From a virus: a stretch of DNA of 64,000 bases. The position numbers were made by a program, and so were the translations under genes. The notes under the pieces are model-generated. The model was not told the DNA's origin. It did not search any database and saw nothing but the letters and a program-made list of their open reading frames with translations. The stretch is taken from the IMG/VR virus record IMGVR_UViG_3300024346_000015, positions 53,615 through 117,614 of that record; one strand, 5' to 3'. The first letter of the stretch is position 1, and every line of letters begins with the position of its first letter. Positions 14,038 to 60,119 of the stretch are shown piece after piece.

Positions 14038-14940
14038 ATGTTTTACAAAGATGACAGTGAGTTATATGTTCAATCGACCAGATCAGATGGTGAACTCAAT
14101 CTGAGGTACGTTACGCCTGAACTGAAGGAACGTACCTACCGACACATCAATAGTCGTATTGAGAACAGTAAGCGAAACAAGAATCTCCTTACTCATTACA
14201 AGAACGCTGAGATTCATATGGTGGCGGAGATAATCAATCGTGTTCCCATGTATTGTAATGTCATCGCATCTCGCGGATACAGTAATATACTGTTCGTTGG
14301 TCATTTCAACGCATCTCAATATAAGTGGTACCTGAAGACTAGACCAGCAGATCCAGGCACTAGACTGTACCATGAACTACCACCCGAACGTGATGGCCAA
14401 GAGAACTTCGTTGACCTAAACATCTGTCACCAATTTGTTCCTATCATTTGGGACATGTATGGTTACAAACCCAATATGGACTATGTCCAACCACCTCATT
14501 CACGTAACTTGGGTATGATGCACGAGTTGTATCAGAAGTTCCAACTAAACAGAGTCCGGTCGGATCAACAGTACCGTCACGGTGATACTCAGTTTGTTCT
14601 ATCTGATTGGGACGAAAACCCGTATGACGCAGTAGTATTTGCGGGTGTACCTGAAGCGGTAGGTAAAGATTCTTTCTCTATGACAGACGTGGTAGATAGT
14701 CTAGGTGCATATGTAACGGATGATTGTGAGTTTATTGATCTATGGGGAAATGAGTCTCACGACTACCGATTCTATGGCAATGAAGCGGATCATCTACCGA
14801 CTGATAACAATGTCGCTACTGCATTCCGCATTAGAGGGGATTGGGACAAACAGGTTAGGAATGAAGGTCGTCCTGAAGAGTACGCACTAATGTGTAAAAA
14901 CATCAATGCGTACCGCAAGAGTTTTATCTTAGAACCTTAA
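14038..14940 (+). CDS. Hypothetical protein (possible Rossmann-like enzyme)
   Basis: 300-aa ORF co-transcribed with a late gene; ILFVG and YDAVVFAG strands. Confidence 0.6.
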   Translation: MFYKDDSELYVQSTRSDGELNLRYVTPELKERTYRHINSRIENSKRNKNLLTHYKNAEIHMVAEIINRVPMYCNVIASRGYSNILFVGHFNASQYKWYLKTRPADPGTRLYHELPPERDGQENFVDLNICHQFVPIIWDMYGYKPNMDYVQPPHSRNLGMMHELYQKFQLNRVRSDQQYRHGDTQFVLSDWDENPYDAVVFAGVPEAVGKDSFSMTDVVDSLGAYVTDDCEFIDLWGNESHDYRFYGNEADHLPTDNNVATAFRIRGDWDKQVRNEGRPEEYALMCKNINAYRKSFILEP

Positions 14941-15809
14941 CCCCAAGTAACTGCTTTAGGAACGTAAGAGGATATCTTTGATTTGATATCCTTTTCTAAT
15001 TTGTCAACTGGAGTGGCTGGTTTACCTTGACGTTTTGCGTAGAAGTATTTCGCATCTTTTAAGAATGAACCACCCCCACCAGATACTTTAAGATCAGCAT
15101 CGACACCGACCTTGTTGAATGCGAATACGATATCCCCATCCATATATCTCTTCAACGTTGAACCCATGTTAACGATGTCAGCCATAGTCTGTGATGCACC
15201 ACGGTGTGTGTTGACTAGGATCTCTGCGGGTACAGTACGAGAACGTCTGAGGTTCTGTGCCTTTGCCACTTCGATATCGTTGACTACCCATACGATATGG
15301 ATGTTCTTCTTGTCGTAACCCACGTTAGTCAACATACGAGATAGGTTACCTAACTTCTGTAGATCTTTCAGAGTTGTATCGAAAACAAGATTAGGTTTAC
15401 GATCAGGTGCAGCTGCAAGGACACCACGCATCAATACTTTCTCTTTACGTGTATCCAGTTGCAGTACGTTAGCAATGATGTCATGTAACTTACCAACGTT
15501 CTCCGGATCCTTTAGATTAGACGCGATCGCTTCGATATCCATACCAGTCTCCGCCTTGACTCTCTTACGAATCAACGGTGACTTTGCAGAAGCAAGTTTG
15601 AGGGAATCAACGTCCATGACTTTACCCTCAAGACCGACTAGGTTGGATAGGACGAATCCTTTACCAGAACCCGCACCGCCTGCCATGATGACAACGTTAC
15701 CGAAGTTGGGGTAAGCTTTACCGCCAAACGTAATGAGTTTTTCCATCAGAATCTCTGCGGATTCTTGGAGTTCTAGTTCTTCTGTGAGGTGTTCGTTGAA
15801 TGTTTTCAT
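14937..15809 (-). CDS. P-loop kinase (zeta/AAA_33/Pnk-kinase-like) with an internal-protein-like N-terminus
   Basis: Walker A GGAGSGKG, VFDTT Walker B, lid N.RR.R.VP; starts MKTFNEHLTE; TATAAATA at 15816-15823. Confidence 0.8.
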   Translation of the reverse strand: MKTFNEHLTEELELQESAEILMEKLITFGGKAYPNFGNVVIMAGGAGSGKGFVLSNLVGLEGKVMDVDSLKLASAKSPLIRKRVKAETGMDIEAIASNLKDPENVGKLHDIIANVLQLDTRKEKVLMRGVLAAAPDRKPNLVFDTTLKDLQKLGNLSRMLTNVGYDKKNIHIVWVVNDIEVAKAQNLRRSRTVPAEILVNTHRGASQTMADIVNMGSTLKRYMDGDIVFAFNKVGVDADLKVSGGGGSFLKDAKYFYAKRQGKPATPVDKLEKDIKSKISSYVPKAVTWG

Positions 15810-15818
15810 GCTTGTTAT

Positions 15819-15971
15819 TTATACAAGTAAGCAGAGACAAGATACGATAAGTAACAAAATAATCACATTGGGACGAAATTCCCACACGTCACCGATGTCG
15901 CTCCAAGTACCTCGAACGAAATCGATTACTACTTCTTGTGCTTTGTTCCAAAGTTCTTTTACTTTATCCAT
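15819..15971 (-). CDS. 50-aa protein with C-terminal TM helix
   Basis: Hand translation MDKVKELW...NVIILLLIVSCLCLLV. Confidence 0.5.
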   Translation of the reverse strand: MDKVKELWNKAQEVVIDFVRGTWSDIGDVWEFRPNVIILLLIVSCLCLLV

Positions 15972-42833: not shown

Positions 42834-42861
42834 TATCTTTTCTCTAAAGGTTTATCTTTAT

Positions 42862-45917: not shown

Positions 45918-46190
45918 TTATACTTCTAAGATACGCAGTATTAAGGTATCTGTTCCTTTTATTAATCGGTGGTACTCCATCTTAGTGATGGTGTAGCTAT
46001 GTCCTTCTAATAATTCGATTGGTTCTTCGTTGTCCATTTGAAGTTCCCAACCATATCCTTCCATGACTATAATCCTTCGATCTCGTTTGTCCCTATGCCA
46101 GACTAGTTCCTCGTCAGCAACATTGGGATCAAATGTCCTAAGTCTACTACCATCATGTAAGTTTAACTCAAGATAAGGACGATCTACCAA
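45918..46190 (-). CDS. Cupin-like small protein
   Basis: WHRD...R; GW..Q.D.E.P; YHRLIKG. Confidence 0.6.
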   Translation of the reverse strand: MVDRPYLELNLHDGSRLRTFDPNVADEELVWHRDKRDRRIIVMEGYGWELQMDNEEPIELLEGHSYTITKMEYHRLIKGTDTLILRILEV

Positions 46191-46693
46191 AAGAAACTAC
46201 CGCCTCCGGAGAGACCTAGTTGTTTTGCGTATCGCGGTAAACGACATGCCCAGTATGCAGCGGTCATACGATCATTCTGTTGGTCACACTTGTGACGTGC
46301 AGCGAATGATTTGCGTGCCTTGGGGTCGTTTAGTTTAACTTTAAGTCCGGTGGTGTCACCCCAAGAGATCTTCTTGATGTTACCTGTAGAAGGATCTTTG
46401 ACGTGTACGTAATACTTCTTAGGGCCACCGGCTTTGGGTTTACCCAGTTCTGGTTCTTTCTCTTCGAAGATGCAATCTAATGCAACGTTCTCTCCATTGA
46501 ACTCAGCAAACTCACCTAGATTACCTTCCATGATGTCTACTTCGGATGGATCAATCTCTAGGTTACCAGCATAGTAATCTTCACGACACTGTCTCCAGTA
46601 ATCGAAATACGCCTCTGATCCAACCCGATAGATATTACTCTCTACTAGGTTAGATTCAGATCCGCAGTTACAATGGTCGTTAAATGATTTCAT
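46184..46693 (-). CDS. Late protein with ARKSFAARHKC motif (DUF6321-like, from memory)
   Basis: KKISWGD; KARKSFAARHKCD; YWACR. Confidence 0.7.
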   Translation of the reverse strand: MKSFNDHCNCGSESNLVESNIYRVGSEAYFDYWRQCREDYYAGNLEIDPSEVDIMEGNLGEFAEFNGENVALDCIFEEKEPELGKPKAGGPKKYYVHVKDPSTGNIKKISWGDTTGLKVKLNDPKARKSFAARHKCDQQNDRMTAAYWACRLPRYAKQLGLSGGGSFFW

Positions 46694-47882: not shown

Positions 47883-48155
47883 TTATGCCAGATCCTTATC
47901 GTGATTTAGTGTGCCTTTTTTCTTTTTGACTATGAACGCATTTACTCGTGCATGTCCCCATTGTTGTGGAGTGGTGCCTGGTCTGTGACCCGTCTTCCAT
48001 GCCGCTACTCCACGGTTATATACCTTCTTGAGTGTAGCAGGCGATATACCAGACTTCTTTGCCTTCGCAGCAATACCGTCCGAACCTTCCTTTACGTCTA
48101 CCTCATCGTACATAGAATATCGTTTTTCTTCTAAGTATTTCTTGAAATTAATCAT
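47883..48155 (-). CDS. Small basic protein with RPGTTPQQW..ARVN motif (DUF5824-like, from memory)
   Basis: LKKVYNRG.AAWKTGHRPG..PQQW..ARVN.F; starts MINFKKYLEE. Confidence 0.7.
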   Translation of the reverse strand: MINFKKYLEEKRYSMYDEVDVKEGSDGIAAKAKKSGISPATLKKVYNRGVAAWKTGHRPGTTPQQWGHARVNAFIVKKKKGTLNHDKDLA

Positions 48156-49888
48156 TTGGTTTCTCTATTCTTTGCTTTGGTTGCGGCCAATCTTGCACGA
48201 TCCATCATACGATCATGTTTTGCCTTGTCAGCTTCCTTCTCACGGTCAATGGCATCTTTTGCGGCAGAGACATCGTCTTCACCCAGTAGACCGTGGAGGA
48301 CTTTTCTATCCATACCACTATACGTATTGGCGATCTTTTGTGCATAATAGTCAGTACTATGTCGCAACTTACCACCGTTCTCTTTCTTTTTACGTACCAA
48401 TAAATCTTTTAATGTCTTCAATGCGTGTTGATACTGCTTCTTATTCGTAGTAACCGACTTCAACTTGTTTAACATTCTACCCTCTGTTGTTTCAGTGGTA
48501 ATAACATTAGAGGTAGTTTTGAAGTTTTTCTTACGCATTATTGTTTTGTTAACAACTTCGAACTCATCCTTCTTACGGTCATAGTTTATGACAACCGGAA
48601 GATTCAAATCAGTTTGTAAATCTTTAATGACCGCTTCACTGTCAGGATTCTGACGAATGTTCTTCGCCTTCCTCTTTGCGATCTTCTTGAATACACGTTG
48701 TAACTCAGCCACCGTGATAGGTGGATCATTACGTTTGTCATTCATACGGTCAGCGAAATGCCGTGTGAACTCGATATCGACATCGAACTTTGCGAGCAGT
48801 CGGTCTGCGAACTTCTCAAGGTCGTTGAGTTGTTTTTGACTGACTTCTTCGTACATGTCTTTGAATTGTTTGGTGTACTTGGATGGTTTCGTTTTCGCGG
48901 TAGCATCGCCTGGAGCGGGTTTATAGGCTGAATCATCATCGTCTGCTTTCTTCCCGTGTTTCTTAAAGTGTGCATCACGTGCAACCTTAGTGGACTTCTT
49001 GAGACCAGAGTGATAACGTGCGGGTTGAGTACCTTTGCGATCCTTGATATCAGAATCTTGTGCTTCGACTAATTCAATTGCGTCAATCCACTTGCGATAC
49101 TTCTTATCCCCGCACTCTACGATTACGTAGTTGGAACCCAGAAACTTTACCACGCCAAGTTCTTCAGACTCTTTAACGACAACTGAATCACCCACTTGGA
49201 AAAGATCCCCCTGCACATACTGTTCTCTTGTTTCAGAAACAGGCGCGAGTTCAACGTGGTTCTTGAAAGATCGTTCTTCCGATAACCCCATACCCTTACG
49301 TACATCATTGAATAAAGACCGTGCGTCCTTGTTGGACATAGTTCTAGGAACACCCTGAGAGAAACTAACGAAGTCATTTTCGGATGCATTCGCTCGTTGT
49401 TTGGATGCGGACATACCTTCAACACCTTCCGCATCGGGATCTCTTGCTCCCGCAGATACTATCTTGATACTTTTAAAGTTGTAGAAACCGTGTCTAGCTT
49501 GTTTCGCATTGTATTTGTTGAGTAACGTTTCGAACTCTCGAATACGATCTGCACCGACAACCATAGTTACATTGCGGTAACCTTGGTCATACAATGATGC
49601 AGCTACATCAAATACGTTTTTGATCTTTTTGTCCATCATAACATTCCGTGCATGTTTTGGGAACATCTTACGGATATGTTTAACTTTCTGAGAATATGTC
49701 AACGGATCCTTTTTAGGATTCTGTGACTGAGACACAAACACCTTGTAGTCTGATTTACCAGACTTAGATGCCAGTGTATCCATTACCTTACCATGACCAA
49801 TTGTTGGAGGATTCATTCTACCAAAGGTAAAATAACATTCTCTCTCTTCTTCAATCAGGTATTGTGAGAAATTTTTAAGATTCTTCAC
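48152..49888 (-). CDS. Multidomain HxGH nucleotidyltransferase (cytidylyltransferase-like) with extra C-terminal modules
   Basis: FTFGRMNPPTIGH; VVGADRI.EF; MSASK; start refined to GTG 49888 (MKNLKNFSQYLIEE). Confidence 0.82.
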   Translation of the reverse strand: MKNLKNFSQYLIEEERECYFTFGRMNPPTIGHGKVMDTLASKSGKSDYKVFVSQSQNPKKDPLTYSQKVKHIRKMFPKHARNVMMDKKIKNVFDVAASLYDQGYRNVTMVVGADRIREFETLLNKYNAKQARHGFYNFKSIKIVSAGARDPDAEGVEGMSASKQRANASENDFVSFSQGVPRTMSNKDARSLFNDVRKGMGLSEERSFKNHVELAPVSETREQYVQGDLFQVGDSVVVKESEELGVVKFLGSNYVIVECGDKKYRKWIDAIELVEAQDSDIKDRKGTQPARYHSGLKKSTKVARDAHFKKHGKKADDDDSAYKPAPGDATAKTKPSKYTKQFKDMYEEVSQKQLNDLEKFADRLLAKFDVDIEFTRHFADRMNDKRNDPPITVAELQRVFKKIAKRKAKNIRQNPDSEAVIKDLQTDLNLPVVINYDRKKDEFEVVNKTIMRKKNFKTTSNVITTETTEGRMLNKLKSVTTNKKQYQHALKTLKDLLVRKKKENGGKLRHSTDYYAQKIANTYSGMDRKVLHGLLGEDDVSAAKDAIDREKEADKAKHDRMMDRARLAATKAKNRETK

Positions 49889-50342
49889 TCTTGCCCCTCT
49901 TACGTGCCAATTCTTGTTTGCGAACTTTGGGTAACAATTTCTTCGCAAGTTTATCGATTTTAGGTTTCATTTTGTCCAGACGTTTTTCGATTTCCATTCG
50001 TCTAGCCATATTTAGGTCGGCTTTACCGACACCTTTTGTCAACTTTTTGGCAAGCATATTACGTGCTTGTTTCTTCGCACGTTTCTTTAGGGTATCCATA
50101 TTAGCAATCTTACGTGCAGCTCTTGCACGACCTATTGCGATCTTGGGGGCGAGTTTCTTCATTTGACGCGCCTTCTTCAGACGCTGTTGAATATTAAGAG
50201 CCGCTTGGAGTTCTACCTCTTCACTGTTGTTACCAGTGGGTATATCCTTTTTGCGTTTCTTACTATTGAGCGCGAGTTGATCATCTCCGGTCTGAGTATA
50301 ATCGACTGCTATGAAATCTTTAAAACCTAACTTCTTAGGCAT
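49875..50342 (-). CDS. Very basic helical protein (probable DNA-binding core protein)
   Basis: Lys/Arg-rich; starts MPKKLGFKDF. Confidence 0.7.
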   Translation of the reverse strand: MPKKLGFKDFIAVDYTQTGDDQLALNSKKRKKDIPTGNNSEEVELQAALNIQQRLKKARQMKKLAPKIAIGRARAARKIANMDTLKKRAKKQARNMLAKKLTKGVGKADLNMARRMEIEKRLDKMKPKIDKLAKKLLPKVRKQELARKRGKSEES

Positions 50343-50366: not shown

Positions 50367-51587
50367 TTAATTACGACTAGGTTTGTCCCAGCCTTTAACA
50401 ACATCGGGCGAAAAGTTATTATAGGAGAATTCCATCCTATTAACCAATTTCACCGCATCACCACCAAGTGTATCAATAGCGACATATCCTTCTTCACCAG
50501 TGGTCTTATAACCATTGGTAGTCTTAACGAACGTGTCGATATTTTTTAAACTATCAAGTTTATTTATAAGAATTAGTTTCGCAAGAACTATGTTTTTTTG
50601 CAATTCGAACATCTGAACTAACGATCTTTGGTTTTTTTGTGAGAAGAATGTCAGTATATCATCTAACTTCTGTTGTTGTACACCCTTACCTTTCTCGGTC
50701 TTTCTCTTATCGATCTCTTTCTGGAACTTCTTATTGATCCAACCGATAAGACCACGAACGTGCGCTTTAGTGTTCGTAATGACCATTCCTTCCCGCACAA
50801 AAGTGTTGTTGTACTGTTCGATCAACTGTGCGAGATCTTGTTTACTTTCTAGTTCACGTAACGTTGTACCCGATACTTTGTTGAACAGTTGACCGCACGT
50901 AGTCAGGTAACCATTCACGGCTTCAGTTTCTTTCTTGGTCAGTGTTGCCCCTTGTTCGTTAGACAACATCGCATCCTGTGACCATACGTTAGTAGACTTA
51001 CGGAACTTAGACACGTCCACACCATACTGCGCTTTCATACTTTCGAACGTATCACCAGTATAGGTTGTGTGCCATACAATACCGATCTTCGCCTTCTTGA
51101 CTTCCGCAGCCTGTTCTACAGGTACCGCATAGATGATTGTGTTTGGGTGAAAGACAACATACGACTTACCGTCAATCTTCTTGGTCTCTAGGTCTGATTT
51201 TGAGAACAAGAAATCTCCTTGGACGACACCCTTGATACCCAGAGAGGGAAGATACTCAAGTGCATCTTTCATCTTACTGGCCAGATCACCAGACATATCC
51301 GCATCAATTTCTGCGTTAGTCTTATAGATCTTTGGGTTCTTTGCAAAGATACCTTTCTTCGCCACAAAGAACTTACCGTCAGATGGATCTTGTCCACAGA
51401 AGATTGCAGGCGCACCGTCCCACTTGACCGATACTTTACTCGCCTTCTTACCACCCAACATGTCACGCATATCACGTAACGCATTGATTGCCGAACGAGT
51501 ACCAGCGACACCCCCATAGAGAACCTTATCCTCAATGTGGGTCATGTGGGTATTTTTCTGTTCTGTTATAAAGTTTTTAAAGTCCAT
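50367..51587 (-). CDS. DUF6267-like protein with ATP-dependent ligase-superfamily motifs
   Basis: KNTH.THIED; KWDG; QGDF; EGYV; VKLVNR. Confidence 0.7.
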   Translation of the reverse strand: MDFKNFITEQKNTHMTHIEDKVLYGGVAGTRSAINALRDMRDMLGGKKASKVSVKWDGAPAIFCGQDPSDGKFFVAKKGIFAKNPKIYKTNAEIDADMSGDLASKMKDALEYLPSLGIKGVVQGDFLFSKSDLETKKIDGKSYVVFHPNTIIYAVPVEQAAEVKKAKIGIVWHTTYTGDTFESMKAQYGVDVSKFRKSTNVWSQDAMLSNEQGATLTKKETEAVNGYLTTCGQLFNKVSGTTLRELESKQDLAQLIEQYNNTFVREGMVITNTKAHVRGLIGWINKKFQKEIDKRKTEKGKGVQQQKLDDILTFFSQKNQRSLVQMFELQKNIVLAKLILINKLDSLKNIDTFVKTTNGYKTTGEEGYVAIDTLGGDAVKLVNRMEFSYNNFSPDVVKGWDKPSRN

Positions 51588-52699
51588 TAGAATTTCAACG
51601 TGGTGAAGTCACACATCATTCGTGTGGGGTAACCATCTTTGCCTTGAGTGTCTCGTATATTTAGTTTGAATCTATAGTACGGTGAACTGAGTTCCATGTC
51701 AATACGTTTACCTCGACCTGTCTTACCACCGTAGTGAACGGTACAAGTAGTAACCTTTGATGCAGCTTGCATCGCAGCGAGATCCATCTTCTTGGAATGA
51801 ACGTTCTTCTTCATCTTATGGATGACATGGTAACCGTGACCGATACCACTTTCGAGTAATGCCTTCATCGCCTGTTTGTCTGGTCGGGTAACGACTTTAC
51901 CACCTTTGGTCTTAACATCGTCATTGAATATACCACAGAATCTCTCGTTGTCAATACCGAATAGATTGAGTAACTTCAGACCATCAGCGTTCTGGATCTT
52001 ACCTTCTTTGATTTCTTTGGGGGTTAACTTGGTACGGACACCTACGTTGAAGAACGTGGTGGTAGACTCGAACTTGAGACTGAGATAGACTTTGGTTCCG
52101 TCTTCCTTTATCAGGGTAACATCAGTAACACTAGAACCGATATCTGTACCCACACCTTTAGTGTTAGTCAAAACGATATTAGCGCCAGTGAAGTTCAATG
52201 GTCTCTTGGTGTTCTCTCCACCCACAACATTGATCTTGAGTGTCTTGGAACCACTGAGATCATACAACTCATCAAGATGCATGATCGCCTTGAGATTACC
52301 CTCATCTTTTACGGCATCCTTACCTTCCGCATACCAAGTATTCAGATCATTTGCAAACGAAGTCTCAAACAGATTACCTCTATTCTTCACACCACGATTA
52401 CCACTAGAACCATTACCATACTTGATACGTACAGTCTTTACTCCAGCGTTACGTTTGATGTCACCGATATCCTCTACCGCCTTGAAGGTACGAGCTATGT
52501 TGATATCTTTCTGTTTTTTCATGTCGATGTTGATCGGTGCTTCTACACCTTTGTTCGACAAGTACTTGAATAGTGCGAGTACATCTGCAACACTATCATG
52601 TGGCCAGTCCGCCAGAGTGGTTGAGATTTCATCTTCCGTTTTAGGGAAGAATGAATATGCTTCCCCCAACATCTCGACATGTTGTTTAAATCGTAACAT
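51587..52699 (-). CDS. PD-(D/E)xK restriction-endonuclease-like late protein
   Basis: G..FE ... TDV ... LSLK; TATAAATA at 52739-52746. Confidence 0.6.
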   Translation of the reverse strand: MLRFKQHVEMLGEAYSFFPKTEDEISTTLADWPHDSVADVLALFKYLSNKGVEAPINIDMKKQKDINIARTFKAVEDIGDIKRNAGVKTVRIKYGNGSSGNRGVKNRGNLFETSFANDLNTWYAEGKDAVKDEGNLKAIMHLDELYDLSGSKTLKINVVGGENTKRPLNFTGANIVLTNTKGVGTDIGSSVTDVTLIKEDGTKVYLSLKFESTTTFFNVGVRTKLTPKEIKEGKIQNADGLKLLNLFGIDNERFCGIFNDDVKTKGGKVVTRPDKQAMKALLESGIGHGYHVIHKMKKNVHSKKMDLAAMQAASKVTTCTVHYGGKTGRGKRIDMELSSPYYRFKLNIRDTQGKDGYPTRMMCDFTTLKF

Positions 52700-52741
52700 C
52701 TGTTTGTCCCAGTGAGTAATTTAAATTAATTATAACACTAT

Positions 52742-53419
52742 TTATAACAAAACGGAAGTAGAACTTTGCTCCTCATTGTATTTTTCTATGGTCTCACGGA
52801 GAGGACGAACCCAGTTATCACGGTGTTCGATGAACACTTGAGGGGCATTACCATCAACAGAAATGACAGTAACCAACTGAGTGATAGGTTGACCAGTACG
52901 TTCTTCCCACATGATTGCATACGCAGCTTCTTGCATGAAGTAGTTCTTAATCCAGTCTTTACGTTTAGGTTTCATCGAAGTCTTGTAGTCAATGATAGAT
53001 GGTTTGCCATCGAAGATACCCACGCAATCCACTCGACCCGCCACACCAAGGTGGTTGGAGTACAGTGGTGCCTCTTGAGCATACACTTTAGTCAGACGTT
53101 CATCTAGTATTGGTTTCAAATCAAGAAACGATTGTACAATGTCCGGAGTATAACCATCCTTGAAGTTGGGATCATTATCAACATACTTCTCAAGGATCTC
53201 GTGAACAGATGTACCACGAGTAGACGCACGATAAGAGATACGGTTAGCTTCCGCATCACCGACCTTCTTACGCCACTTGGCAATTGAGTCACGACTAAGT
53301 ATAGATAGTACAGTAGTAATAGAAGGTAGATTGACACCCTCTGGAGTTTTGTATTTACGACCAGAGTCCGTAGTAACGGCATTCATCTCAGTCAATTCAA
53401 CGCTTTCATGTTCAAACAT
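52742..53419 (-). CDS. Cas4-like PD-(D/E)xK exonuclease
   Basis: PSITTVL; RGT.VH; GRVDC; IIDYKTS; QEAAY; promoter TTGACA-N17-TATAAT at 53449-53477. Confidence 0.88.
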   Translation of the reverse strand: MFEHESVELTEMNAVTTDSGRKYKTPEGVNLPSITTVLSILSRDSIAKWRKKVGDAEANRISYRASTRGTSVHEILEKYVDNDPNFKDGYTPDIVQSFLDLKPILDERLTKVYAQEAPLYSNHLGVAGRVDCVGIFDGKPSIIDYKTSMKPKRKDWIKNYFMQEAAYAIMWEERTGQPITQLVTVISVDGNAPQVFIEHRDNWVRPLRETIEKYNEEQSSTSVLL

Positions 53420-53473: not shown

Positions 53474-53713
53474 TCAAGCCATAGTTTCAATTAAATTTCG
53501 TGCAAGGAAGGTCAGTCCCAGACCATTTACCAGTATCAACGCCCTGTCTTTCCAGAGTATCGATACCCATAACCATCCGATTACACCCACAAACGATAGA
53601 CTCAGGTCATAGATCTGGAGTCCATCAACACCTCTGATTGACATGGCACTGATCATCAATACGGATGCGGCCCACTTTACATACCAATCTAATTCTCTCT
53701 TAGCCCCAGACAT
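53474..53713 (-). CDS. Small multi-TM protein
   Basis: WY.KW.AS; three hydrophobic segments. Confidence 0.65.
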   Translation of the reverse strand: MSGAKRELDWYVKWAASVLMISAMSIRGVDGLQIYDLSLSFVGVIGWLWVSILWKDRALILVNGLGLTFLARNLIETMA

Positions 53714-58238: not shown

Positions 58239-58972
58239 TGTTGTGTTATTGTAACAGAACAACCGCCTACTGTCAAGCAATTTTGCTGTAAAGTATAGGT
58301 TGCGGTTGAATTAAATTGTTTGAGAGTCAAGTCAGTACCATACGTACCGTCAAGAGTTATATTTGCGGTATGGGTTGCGTTGGGCCCTTTCTGACGGATG
58401 AACACATCGTTCTCGTCATTGTAGATATTGAGGTTGATTTCCTTTGCACCATCGTGTTGTTGGATGGTCGTAACCTCGTTGTTGTCTCCAGCTACGTGTA
58501 GATCGACTGCATGACCATCGACACTACCTTGATTGGTCTGTTGAATAGAAACACCGTTGTTGTCTCCGTGAACGGTTAGGTCAACGGTATGTCCACCGCC
58601 TTCCCAGTTATCGTACCAATAGTCATGGTTGGTATAACTCTCTGGATAATCGAATGCACATCCTTGACAGATCTTTACTCCATTACCAGAACCACTCATC
58701 TCATCTGTTGTAATCTTGTTTACAGAAGAAGTGTCTTCGTTGTATTGAATGAATAGAAGTCCACTATAGGTGGTGTTGATAAATGATCCAGTATCTAACA
58801 TATCCACCACATTGTGTGAACCGACTTGTTCTATACCTAAACTGAAATTAGTACCGGATTGATCGATAGTTATTTGATTGTCCGCTGATGCGGTATCGGT
58901 GAAGAAACATATTAGACCAATGAAGAATATGGCCATGATACATGTATCTCTGAATTCGTTGTCGTCTTTCAT
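58235..58972 (-). CDS. Secreted curlin-repeat protein (CsgA/CsgB-like) 2
   Basis: Signal peptide; repeats I.Q.G..N / G.NN.V.I.Q. Confidence 0.7.
   Translation of the reverse strand: MKDDNEFRDTCIMAIFFIGLICFFTDTASADNQITIDQSGTNFSLGIEQVGSHNVVDMLDTGSFINTTYSGLLFIQYNEDTSSVNKITTDEMSGSGNGVKICQGCAFDYPESYTNHDYWYDNWEGGGHTVDLTVHGDNNGVSIQQTNQGSVDGHAVDLHVAGDNNEVTTIQQHDGAKEINLNIYNDENDVFIRQKGPNATHTANITLDGTYGTDLTLKQFNSTATYTLQQNCLTVGGCSVTITQQ
58248..58276 (-). promoter_or_regulatory. sigma70 promoter TTGACA-N17-TACAAT for the cyclase gene
   Basis: Near-consensus, just upstream of ATG 58238. Confidence 0.75.
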
Positions 58973-58973
58973 A

Positions 58974-60119
58974 TCAATTGCTCTGTCTTATTACCACCAA
59001 AATGTCATCACCCCCGTCTGCGGTGATCGTTCCTACGTAACCTTCTACCTCTGTATCTAGTCTTATACTACCTCCGGTTAAAAAGTTCAATGCAATAACA
59101 CCGTTTACGTCACGGTAGAAAACAATACCTTGGTCTTCTTGGAAAACTGCATATTGACTGTCAACGTTCTTACCCCAGACAGCACCCTTCAACCTTATCG
59201 CACCACCACCTCTACCCGATTGCATATCTTCGAGATCACCCATAGTGCGTACTAATGCTTCTACTTCATCTAATAGATCCACCAACAATTCTGAGTCAAG
59301 TGCATCATAGTCTAATCTAGTGTAGACCGGATCTTCAGCGTAATCATCATATGACTTTTCCAGTTCATCGAACTGAAGGAAGTCTGCGTCCAATGAACCC
59401 ATGTCTATATCAGCGTCATCTAACAACTGTTCTTGTATCGCCTCTGCCACTTCATCGGGTGGACTGACAATGAACATGTTATCGATTGACGATGGTGTTA
59501 TATTCTCGATGACCACAACTCTGGTCGGAGGCGAGTCTAAACTAGACACCATTGTCGTTGCATAGGCTTGAGTGAGAGTAGTCTCACCCGCATCATTAGA
59601 AACAACAATCTCACCAGACGGATTACCATATTCGTCCGGTAATAATATAACGAGAGTCCGACCCAACTCATCGATCGTTGTAGTGAAATCCGTTCCACGG
59701 ACAGCAATCTGTGCAGTCGGGGTAGAGATATCGATATTCTTCTTATCTACCATTCCCAATCGACCAGACGCAAATCGAGCAGTCCCAAGTGCCATCTTCA
59801 TGACCATCTTAGACTTACTCGGATCTGGATCGTAATACACCTTATCAATAAAGACTTTGGTGTGTTCGATCAACGACAACTCAGCATCATCCTTGAACTT
59901 AATTAACATCCTTCCCTTTGCAGTTTGGGCTGTATCATTAAGTTCTATGTCAGTGCCTACCACGGACGATATGACATCCGTCTCTCTTAGCAAAGAACCG
60001 ATTCCTTTCGATTCAACTATCCCGCCGATAGATTCTGCATGTACTACCCCAGAACCCATTGACAGTATAACACTAATTATCGTTGGCGTTATCTTTCTGA
60101 TTAATCTGTATGACTGCAT
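58974..60119 (-). CDS. FecR-domain periplasmic protein
   Basis: D...T.....I.F.D.....L.E.T; L.GT.RF.SG; I.TPTA.I.VRGT.F. Confidence 0.85.
   Translation of the reverse strand: MQSYRLIRKITPTIISVILSMGSGVVHAESIGGIVESKGIGSLLRETDVISSVVGTDIELNDTAQTAKGRMLIKFKDDAELSLIEHTKVFIDKVYYDPDPSKSKMVMKMALGTARFASGRLGMVDKKNIDISTPTAQIAVRGTDFTTTIDELGRTLVILLPDEYGNPSGEIVVSNDAGETTLTQAYATTMVSSLDSPPTRVVVIENITPSSIDNMFIVSPPDEVAEAIQEQLLDDADIDMGSLDADFLQFDELEKSYDDYAEDPVYTRLDYDALDSELLVDLLDEVEALVRTMGDLEDMQSGRGGGAIRLKGAVWGKNVDSQYAVFQEDQGIVFYRDVNGVIALNFLTGGSIRLDTEVEGYVGTITADGGDDILVVIRQSN

Follow-up and report, generated by a model that had tools for sequence, protein, structure and literature searches.

A DUF6267 protein of a marine T4-like phage with a predicted ligase-like nucleotidyltransferase fold and a leader resembling capsid-targeting sequences

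The window analysed here is a 64,000-nucleotide stretch of IMG/VR virus record IMGVR_UViG_3300024346_000015 (positions 53,615 to 117,614 of that record), a 122-kb contig of a marine T4-like myovirus that is approximately 74% complete. On its minus strand, at positions 50367–51587, lies an open reading frame for a 406-residue protein of the DUF6267 family, the predicted fold and conserved motifs of which are those of ligase-type nucleotidyltransferases and which begins with a leader resembling the capsid-targeting propeptides of phage T4. The family assignment made in a first-pass annotation of the window holds: the match to PF19782 is full length (E-value 5e-105, 352 bits against a cut-off of 27, with residues 12–393 aligned to positions 1–373 of the 376 in the profile), and the protein is also a member of phrog_455. 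Its closest relatives among isolates are found in phage C48C1 (67% identity) and Pelagibacter phage HTVC008M (37%), followed by several hundred cyanomyoviruses, and in ocean metagenomes the family comprises at least 7,980 clusters at 90% identity and at least 2,575 at 50%. All of the relatives examined carry the source name 'hypothetical protein', a literature search on 'DUF6267' returned no papers, and nothing relevant was found in the literature on RNA ligase in cyanophages or HTVC008M. The gene is present in almost every marine T4-like phage. The homologue in cyanophage S-SM1, SSM1_189, is labelled T4-GC71, which is one of the 25 core genes of cyanomyoviruses, is present in all 16 genomes and is described only as 'hypothetical' (Sullivan et al. 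2010, Table S4, PMC3037559). One DUF6267 gene (locus L024) lies on a 188-kb contig of the cultured flavobacterium Nonlabens xiamenensis 1Q3, which could be a co-sequenced or resident large phage; the other cellular matches all come from aquatic bins of metagenome-assembled genomes, probably with phage contigs.

All five nucleotidyltransferase motifs that the first-pass annotation had read in the protein were recovered on translation where it had placed them, in the order found in ligases and, like the gene, on the minus strand. Motif I, VKWDG (51414–51428), contains K55, the predicted nucleotidyl-accepting lysine, and K55, D57 and G58 are invariant; the Ia-like element FFVAKK (51354–51371) contributes the invariant F74 and K78; motif III, VQGDF (51210–51224), has conserved Q123, G124 and D125, with D125 invariant; motif IV, EEGYV (50481–50495), has invariant E366 and G367; and motif V, VKLVNR (50436–50453), has an invariant K380 and a near-invariant R384. 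Conservation was assessed in an alignment of 56 close members (A1) and in a second alignment (A3; n = 37) of 22 short cyanophage and 15 long forms, with 25–35% identity between the groups. K55, D57, G58, F74, K78, G124, D125, E366, G367 and K380 are invariant in the first alignment and the same columns are invariant in the second, so the motifs are not chance strings, and a chance origin was ruled out on this basis. The family additionally carries a conserved HxxHxED box of its own, which in the window protein reads HMTHIED (51528–51548, minus strand; H14, H17, E19 and D20), lies upstream of motif I and is kept in the short cyanophage forms too, together with an HTxY element; among the close members H17 never varies, and H14 is conserved in at least 90%.

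Set beside T4 Rnl1, the motif strings correspond as TK99EDG to VK55WDG, LFKSK119GS to FVAKK78GI, IE227GYVA to EE366GYVA and FK240IK242 to VK380LVNR, and the Ia-like element stands at a spacing from motif I similar to that of LFKSK119GS in T4 Rnl1. The strings compared in T4 Rnl2 were E204-GYV for motif IV and K225-C-K227 for motif V.

Structure prediction, which had been proposed as a check of the ligase assignment, gave a ligase-like fold with RNA ligases as the leading matches. The AlphaFold2 model of the window protein has a mean predicted local distance difference test score (pLDDT) of 93.4 and a predicted template modelling score of 0.90, with residues 1–8 below a pLDDT of 50. The large helical insert that had been noted between motifs III and IV is present in the model, in which DSSP assigns helices over residues 218–345 (50553–50936, minus strand), between the strands 201–205 and 351–356; its length varies across the family, and it is shorter in cyanophage forms (S-SM1 and S-CREM2). 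In an exhaustive VIA alignment against 48,161 PDB representatives, the model matched 5cot (NgrRnl; Z = 8.1 over 186 residues), Trl1 (7.9 over 200), REL1 (7.9), T4 Rnl2 (7.5) and T4 Rnl1 (6.8), with DNA ligases below the RNA ligases at Z = 6–6.5, and the sole non-ligase rows were short helical bundles matching the insert. In a second VIA inspection, rows 1–19 were all RNA ligases, and 6vt9 reached Z = 8.6 over 183 residues, with residues 11–392 of the model placed on residues 143–338 of the chain, that is, on the whole adenylyltransferase domain of NgrRnl. An independent model was made of a divergent 298-residue cyanophage member with a minimal insert (pLDDT 91.8). In the same VIA search, the first 27 of the 48,161 rows for this form were all ligases, with RNA ligases first; only 16 chains reached Z ≥ 5, all of them ligases, and capping enzymes followed at Z of about 3.6–4. 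With Foldseek, about 44 of the top 50 rows for the 298-residue form were ligases or capping enzymes, and ligases dominate the lists of both models.

Taken together, the predicted fold and the invariance of the KxDG, D, EG and K residues support the placement of DUF6267 in the covalent nucleotidyltransferase superfamily, and the superfamily membership claimed in the first-pass annotation is thus upheld by two predicted structures and by the catalytic positions. Since it has Asp in motif III, a single lysine in motif V, and its own HxxHxED box and HTxY element, the family is a new branch rather than a member of Rnl1, Rnl2 or Rnl5. Having no OB domain, it falls outside the families of DNA ligases and capping enzymes as these are defined, and it agrees in this with the RNA-ligase branches, in which accessory domains of other kinds are used. 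Sub-threshold matches to PF09511 were obtained for three of the 56 close relatives (best E-value 6e-4); the window protein itself matched none of PF09511, PF09414 and PF01068, and a fold search of the ESM Atlas returned DUF6267 clusters only. Invariance of the catalytic positions at 25–35% identity is the pattern typical of an active enzyme, and the protein is very probably an active lysine nucleotidyltransferase.

The conserved domain is preceded by the leader MDFKNFITE (51561–51587, minus strand), which resembles a T4 capsid-targeting sequence (CTS) and ends in a protease-type I-x-E site; it is disordered in the model, and the domain begins directly after it. The T4 internal proteins IPII and IPIII start with MKTYQEFIAE. 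Targeting by the T4 CTS depends on its residues 4 and 7, and processing requires residues 8 and 10 (Mullaney and Black 1996, reviewed in PMC9026906); in MDFKNFITE, F3 and F6 take the places of CTS positions 4 and 7, and I7 and E9 those of positions 8 and 10. A regular expression for the leader matched 48 of the 73 relatives in which the domain starts 9–22 residues from the N-terminus, against 0.8% of internal control windows. In 86 of 95 members a [LIVMF]xE site precedes the domain by no more than 12 residues, and among the fused or extended forms 23 of 24 have one (control 12.6%); the members are related sequences, however, so that the p-value overstates their independence. Because nearly every junction in the fused relatives described below (of the P0131, P0005 and P0001 types) keeps an (L/I/V/M)xE site, the fusions may be polyproteins that the prohead protease cleaves. 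A prohead protease of the gp21 type (PF03420, E-value 1.3e-41) is encoded in the record.

The late promoter that had been claimed together with the capsid leader was also found. A TATAAATA late-promoter box at 52739–52746 (minus strand), about 40 nucleotides upstream of the ATG at 52699, heads a two-gene unit that includes the DUF6267 gene. The window contains 16 TATAAATA boxes against 3.06 expected, a five-fold excess reached by none of 100 shuffles, and the boxes lie mostly on the coding strand and just upstream of genes (for example at 42859, 45915, 50561, 52739 and 62768), a distribution compatible with late promoters of the T4 type. The DUF6267 gene itself contains one box (50561–50568), about 220 nucleotides upstream of the next gene. 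The first gene of the two-gene unit (51587–52699, minus strand; 370 residues, phrog_8438) has a stop codon that overlaps the ATG of the DUF6267 gene, and the two are therefore probably co-transcribed and translationally coupled. Its product was likened to type II restriction endonucleases of the HaeIII, MspI and HinP1I families by ESM features only (0.90–0.92).

Gene order was counted at 72 loci from genome bins, 39 of which had enough sequence downstream and 45 upstream. The most constant neighbour is a nucleotidyltransferase with a HIGH motif (cytidylyltransferase-like; PF01467, phrog_395/3041), which in the window lies two genes downstream of the DUF6267 gene at 48152–49888 (minus strand), with a GTG start and the leader VKNLKNFSQYLIEE. 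A gene of this type occurs within 4 kb downstream of DUF6267 at 25 of the 39 loci and upstream at none of the 45. At least eight fusions between DUF6267 and the transferase, in both orders, were present among approximately 15 extended forms in the best 150 representatives, and one ESM Atlas cluster also pairs the two. The proposed functional link to this neighbour is thereby supported by gene order and gene fusion. The extensions of the fused relatives, N-terminal or C-terminal, gave no PDB sequence match and mostly sub-threshold Pfam matches to CTP_transf_like; a single weak match of the Pol-beta type was obtained (P0086, E-value 0.18). The transferase itself has only weak NaMNAT and cytidylyltransferase matches and is NMNAT-like at best. 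A complex prediction for DUF6267 with the N-terminal domain of the transferase scored 0.01 and was not used as evidence either way.

Other fusions join DUF6267 to a kinase of the Zeta-toxin/AAA_33 type (P0001, in which the ligase part is 69% identical), to an 'FTRHF' module from the C-terminal half of the transferase protein (P0131) and to a homologue of the window protein encoded at 46184–46693 (P0005). The window encodes a distal P-loop kinase of the Zeta-toxin/AAA_33 type, identified with Pfam (14937–15809, minus strand), which has the leader MKTFNEHLTEE and its own TATAAATA box at 15816–15823 and is weakly similar to the kinase half of P0001; short P-loop kinases also follow DUF6267 at a few loci. 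Of the co-operation that had been suggested with this kinase, a weaker link remains, drawn from the one fusion and from adjacency at few loci. The kinase is a possible third component, and from its leader and promoter box it may be another candidate packaged enzyme. Kinship of the kinase with T4 PseT was considered and rejected (BLASTP E-value 3). Known kinases of the Zeta family act on UDP-GlcNAc and nucleotide-sugars or NAD, not on polynucleotides.

The suggested co-operation with two further neighbours is not conserved. The PD-(D/E)xK exonuclease gene (52742–53419) accompanies DUF6267 at two of the 45 loci, and a gene of the restriction-like 51587–52699 type lies upstream at only three of the 45, in a slot that holds at least six unrelated gene clusters across the relatives. 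Between DUF6267 and the transferase lies a gene for a small basic protein of 155 residues (49875–50342, minus strand), which is found downstream of DUF6267 at nine of the 39 loci. At locus L023 (7182–7541) this recurrent, very basic protein starts with MKTYKEFLTE, which is almost the T4 IPII/IPIII leader. The same leader type heads the kinase, the transferase and a 90-residue DUF5824 protein in the window. DUF5824 is split in the window between the C-terminal part of the transferase protein (48152–49888, minus strand) and this 90-residue gene (47883–48155, minus strand; leader MINFKKYLEE), whereas the two parts are contiguous in the fusion P0003. In phages P-HM1, P-HM2 and Syn1 the T4-GC71 gene is long (1206–1221 nucleotides) and the transferase gene T4-GC190 is short (552–570 nucleotides), with the reverse in the other 13 phages (Sullivan 2010, Table S4, PMC3037559); this exchange of lengths may reflect the transfer of a domain from one partner gene to the other.

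In published virion proteomes, the transferase T4-GC190 was detected in S-SM1 virions with 25 counts (Table S8), as were the products of the neighbouring genes GC1453 (SSM1_188), GC1454 (SSM1_191) and GC1455 (SSM1_192), and in S-CREM2 virions the transferase, ORF154, and the products of adjacent open reading frames were detected. The transferases detected in virions start with a leader (MKKFSAFLNEAE for S-SM1, MKNFSSFLTEADE for S-CREM2). Those DUF6267 proteins of cyanophages that were checked have none, the S-SM1 protein starting with MCDSTLSC and that of S-WAM1 with MSKNTHLEHLED. The leader thus tracks presence in the virion in the two phages with virion data, which strengthens its reading as a targeting signal. 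Packaging of DUF6267 would be lineage-specific at best, and it is plausible for the clade of the window protein.

As to the ligases that these phages possess, the record of the window contains no match to PF01068, PF01653, PF09414, PF09511 or RtcB, none of the ligase families tested (among them PF01068 and PF01653) occurs in the complete C48C1 and S-WAM1 genomes, and a six-frame search with PF09511 at E ≤ 10 found nothing in five phage records. RnlA and PseT belong to the core of the non-cyanophage T4-like phages and are missing from all cyanomyoviruses (Sullivan et al. 2010, Table S3, PMC3037559), and gp30 is a quasi-core gene that is absent from at least one of the marine cyanophages (Petrov et al. 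2010, PMC2993671). It is reasonably likely that the DUF6267 protein joins polynucleotide ends. As its substrate, RNA is modestly favoured over DNA because of the ranking of the fold matches, the Rnl1-like motifs, the absence of an OB domain and the fusion to a kinase; the core-gene status of the family, its position in the replication module of cyanophages and the missing gp30 weigh for DNA instead.

The reading that we favour, with somewhat more confidence than doubt, is that the window protein is an OB-less RNA-ligase-like nucleotidyltransferase that forms a unit with the HIGH-motif transferase and is probably loaded into the head and injected. DUF6267 would then be a divergent covalent (lysine) nucleotidyltransferase without an OB domain, nearest by fold and motifs to the ATP-dependent RNA ligases (Rnl5/NgrRnl, Rnl1/Trl1 and Rnl2). 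K55 would attack a nucleotide donor, most likely ATP, to form an adduct of the enzyme with a nucleoside monophosphate, which would be passed to a 5'-phosphate end, and attack by a 3'-OH would then seal the break. Substrate binding, which in other RNA ligases falls to C-terminal or N-terminal domains, would be taken over by the inserted helical domain; RNA ends would be somewhat likelier targets than DNA nicks, and the enzyme would act together with the HIGH-motif nucleotidyltransferase encoded two genes downstream. It would probably be expressed from the late promoter, enter the prohead, lose its leader through cleavage after I-T-E by the gp21-type protease and be injected along with the DNA, prohead loading being probable because of the T4-type propeptide MDFKNFITE and the late promoter. 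In this scheme we take the fold, the conservation of the catalytic residues, the linkage of the genes, the leader, the promoter and the protease gene as shown, and we infer the activity, the substrate and the packaging.

Several observations weigh against this reading. The Foldseek E-values are weak (0.09 or worse), and a VIA Z of about 8 lies within the range that is possible without homology. As such a Z is not decisive alone, the divergent 298-residue cyanophage member was folded as well, and the case from the fold rests on the uniform lists of matches and on the motifs, given that the Foldseek E-values and Z scores are weak. No ligase match was obtained with phmmer and hmmsearch against PDB sequences, and alignment of the family profile with T4 Rnl1 and Rnl2 (as a single sequence and as a 19-member profile) with hhalign was not significant, with a probability below 1% for Rnl2 and only the EGYV stretch of motif IV aligned. 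No OB or other known nucleic-acid-binding domain was found, and the chain ends 26 residues past motif V with a single helix. The acid of motif III is Asp (D125) where ligases usually have Glu, and motif V has one lysine, K380, with Val at +2 in place of the second lysine of the usual KxK, for which R384 could stand in. We know of no established role for a HIGH-motif transferase in strand joining. In the window, neither tRNA genes nor an end-healing phosphatase were found, and the analysis identified no partner of the 3'-phosphatase or cyclic phosphodiesterase type. With regard to packaging, T4-GC71, the leaderless homologue of DUF6267, was not detected in S-SM1, S-PM2 or Syn9 virions (Table S8), and the portions of the S-CREM2 virion table that were examined have no open reading frame at the position of the DUF6267 homologue, 58914–59762. 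The capsid-leader idea of the first-pass annotation is partly supported, and delivery in the virion is a hypothesis: the leader, the late promoter and the protease gene speak for it, and the failure to detect the leaderless homologues in S-SM1 and S-CREM2 virions speaks against it. We put packaging and injection of the window-lineage protein at slightly below an even chance, and an 'injected repair system' is a reasonable hypothesis; that the task of the enzyme is the repair of tRNA or DNA is likewise something that we only infer.

The strongest of the competing accounts turns on the DNA ligase that is missing from marine T4-like phages. The DUF6267 protein could be this enzyme, acting in the cytoplasm to seal Okazaki and repair nicks in place of gp30 without being injected, with the N-terminal motif incidental or otherwise used. 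Neither an ATP-dependent nor an NAD-dependent DNA ligase is found in its own record or in C48C1 and S-WAM1, T4-GC71 is a universal core gene of cyanomyoviruses, the cyanophage gene sits in the replication block uvsX–gp41–mazG, the homologue was undetected in two virion proteomes (for S-CREM2, in the portions of the table examined), and NgrRnl, the best structural match, is a nick-sealing enzyme. We nevertheless consider this account unlikely, as the protein has no OB domain, which all DNA ligases that have been studied use, and ends 26 residues past motif V, and DNA ligases rank below RNA ligases in every fold search. A late promoter and a CTS-like leader, the latter in 48 of 73 relatives of the clade, are moreover ill-suited to a replication enzyme, and protease-type sites are kept at 23 of 24 fusion junctions. 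A PolX palm domain was found neither in this genome nor in three related ones. It is somewhat harder still to credit that the protein transfers nucleotides but is no strand-joining ligase, and with the transferase and the kinase caps or adenylylates a nucleic-acid or protein end, or uses or regenerates a dinucleotide cofactor such as NAD+. The synthesis of NAD, FAD and CoA typically pairs a kinase with a HIGH transferase. The conserved partner is a HIGH nucleotidyltransferase of the small-molecule type with weak NaMNAT and cytidylyltransferase matches, and the kinase is of the Zeta-toxin type. The lack of a second lysine in motif V, the Asp of motif III and the family-specific invariant H17 and H173, which have no counterpart in ligases, point in the same direction. 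However, capping enzymes lie far below ligases in the fold searches (Z of about 3.6–4) and also need an OB domain, and neither sequence nor fold gives evidence for any particular alternative substrate. A head component of the structural or scaffold type, derived from a ligase but catalytically dead, would suit the leader, the late expression and the neighbouring genes, which encode virion proteins in cyanophages, yet it is highly improbable, with the nucleotide-binding and catalytic positions all invariant at 25–35% identity.

The favoured reading, that of an RNA-ligase-like enzyme probably carried in the head, also admits a bolder extension, which we regard as rather doubtful. The ligase-fold enzyme, the NMNAT-like transferase and the P-loop kinase would form a strand-joining kit that is injected and acts before phage gene expression, resealing tRNA, mRNA or incoming DNA cut by host defences, perhaps with a cofactor made by the partner. 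An NAD+-coupled ligase with its own NAD+ supply would be an example, and such a kit, if real, would be immune to defences that act by translation shutoff or NAD depletion; a cofactor-supply role of the transferase is speculation.

In conclusion, T4-GC71 has been 'hypothetical' since 2010, and its assignment to a ligase fold opens a long-standing gap to a concrete and inexpensive biochemical test: phages with DUF6267 are missing the DNA ligase, RNA ligase and polynucleotide kinase found in other T4-like phages. If the enzyme and the transferase are injected, T4-like heads would be pre-loaded with a new class of enzymatic cargo, which might serve against anticodon-nuclease or nicking defences. 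As a compact ligase that has no OB domain and binds its substrate through a novel insert, the enzyme could also be of use as a reagent.

Among enzymes of known structure, the best match to the phage protein is NgrRnl (Rnl5; 5COT and 6VT9), domain 143–339 of which superimposes with Z = 8.1–8.6 and a root-mean-square deviation of 3.8–3.9 over 183–186 residues, at 9–13% identity. NgrRnl uses the classic lysine-AMP pathway (PMC4408790). An OB-like domain stands at its N-terminus and a helical insert is missing, whereas the phage protein has no N-terminal or C-terminal accessory domain and carries its helical insert before motif IV. With T4 Rnl1 and the ligase domain of Trl1 (PF09511), the fold matches extend over 156–200 residues (Z = 6.8–7.9), and KxDG, an F..K-G element about 20 residues later, EGYVA and the motif V lysine are held in common; both groups have an all-helical accessory domain, which is inserted in DUF6267 rather than C-terminal. 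Unlike these ligases, the DUF6267 protein has no PF09511 match, lacks the second motif V lysine and has Asp in motif III. T4 Rnl2 and REL1 (PF09414) score Z = 6.5–7.9 and likewise have EGYV as motif IV, but the phage protein has no PF09414 match, no significant profile–profile alignment and no counterpart of the C-terminal domain of Rnl2. The ATP-dependent DNA ligases (T4 gp30, Chlorella virus and LigI; PF01068) have the nucleotidyltransferase core and motifs I, III, IV and V in common with it; they score lower (Z = 5–6.5), and in comparison with them the phage protein lacks an OB domain, motif VI and a PF01068 match.

The cyanophage gene T4-GC71 belongs to the same Pfam family as the window protein, and with its neighbour T4-GC190, annotated as 'cytitidyltransferase' (PMC3037559), it forms the same gene pair as in the window; the T4-GC71 forms are shorter (approximately 295–330 residues) and have no N-terminal leader, and in virions GC190 was detected but T4-GC71 was not. 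The T4 proteins IPI, IPII, IPIII and Alt, which are targeted to the capsid, processed by gp21 and injected, have leaders in which two aromatic residues stand three apart and are followed by (I/L)-x-E, as in the DUF6267 leader. Unlike the T4 internal proteins, the predicted cargo here is an enzyme of about 400 residues from an unrelated family, and its packaging and cleavage are predicted from the leader.

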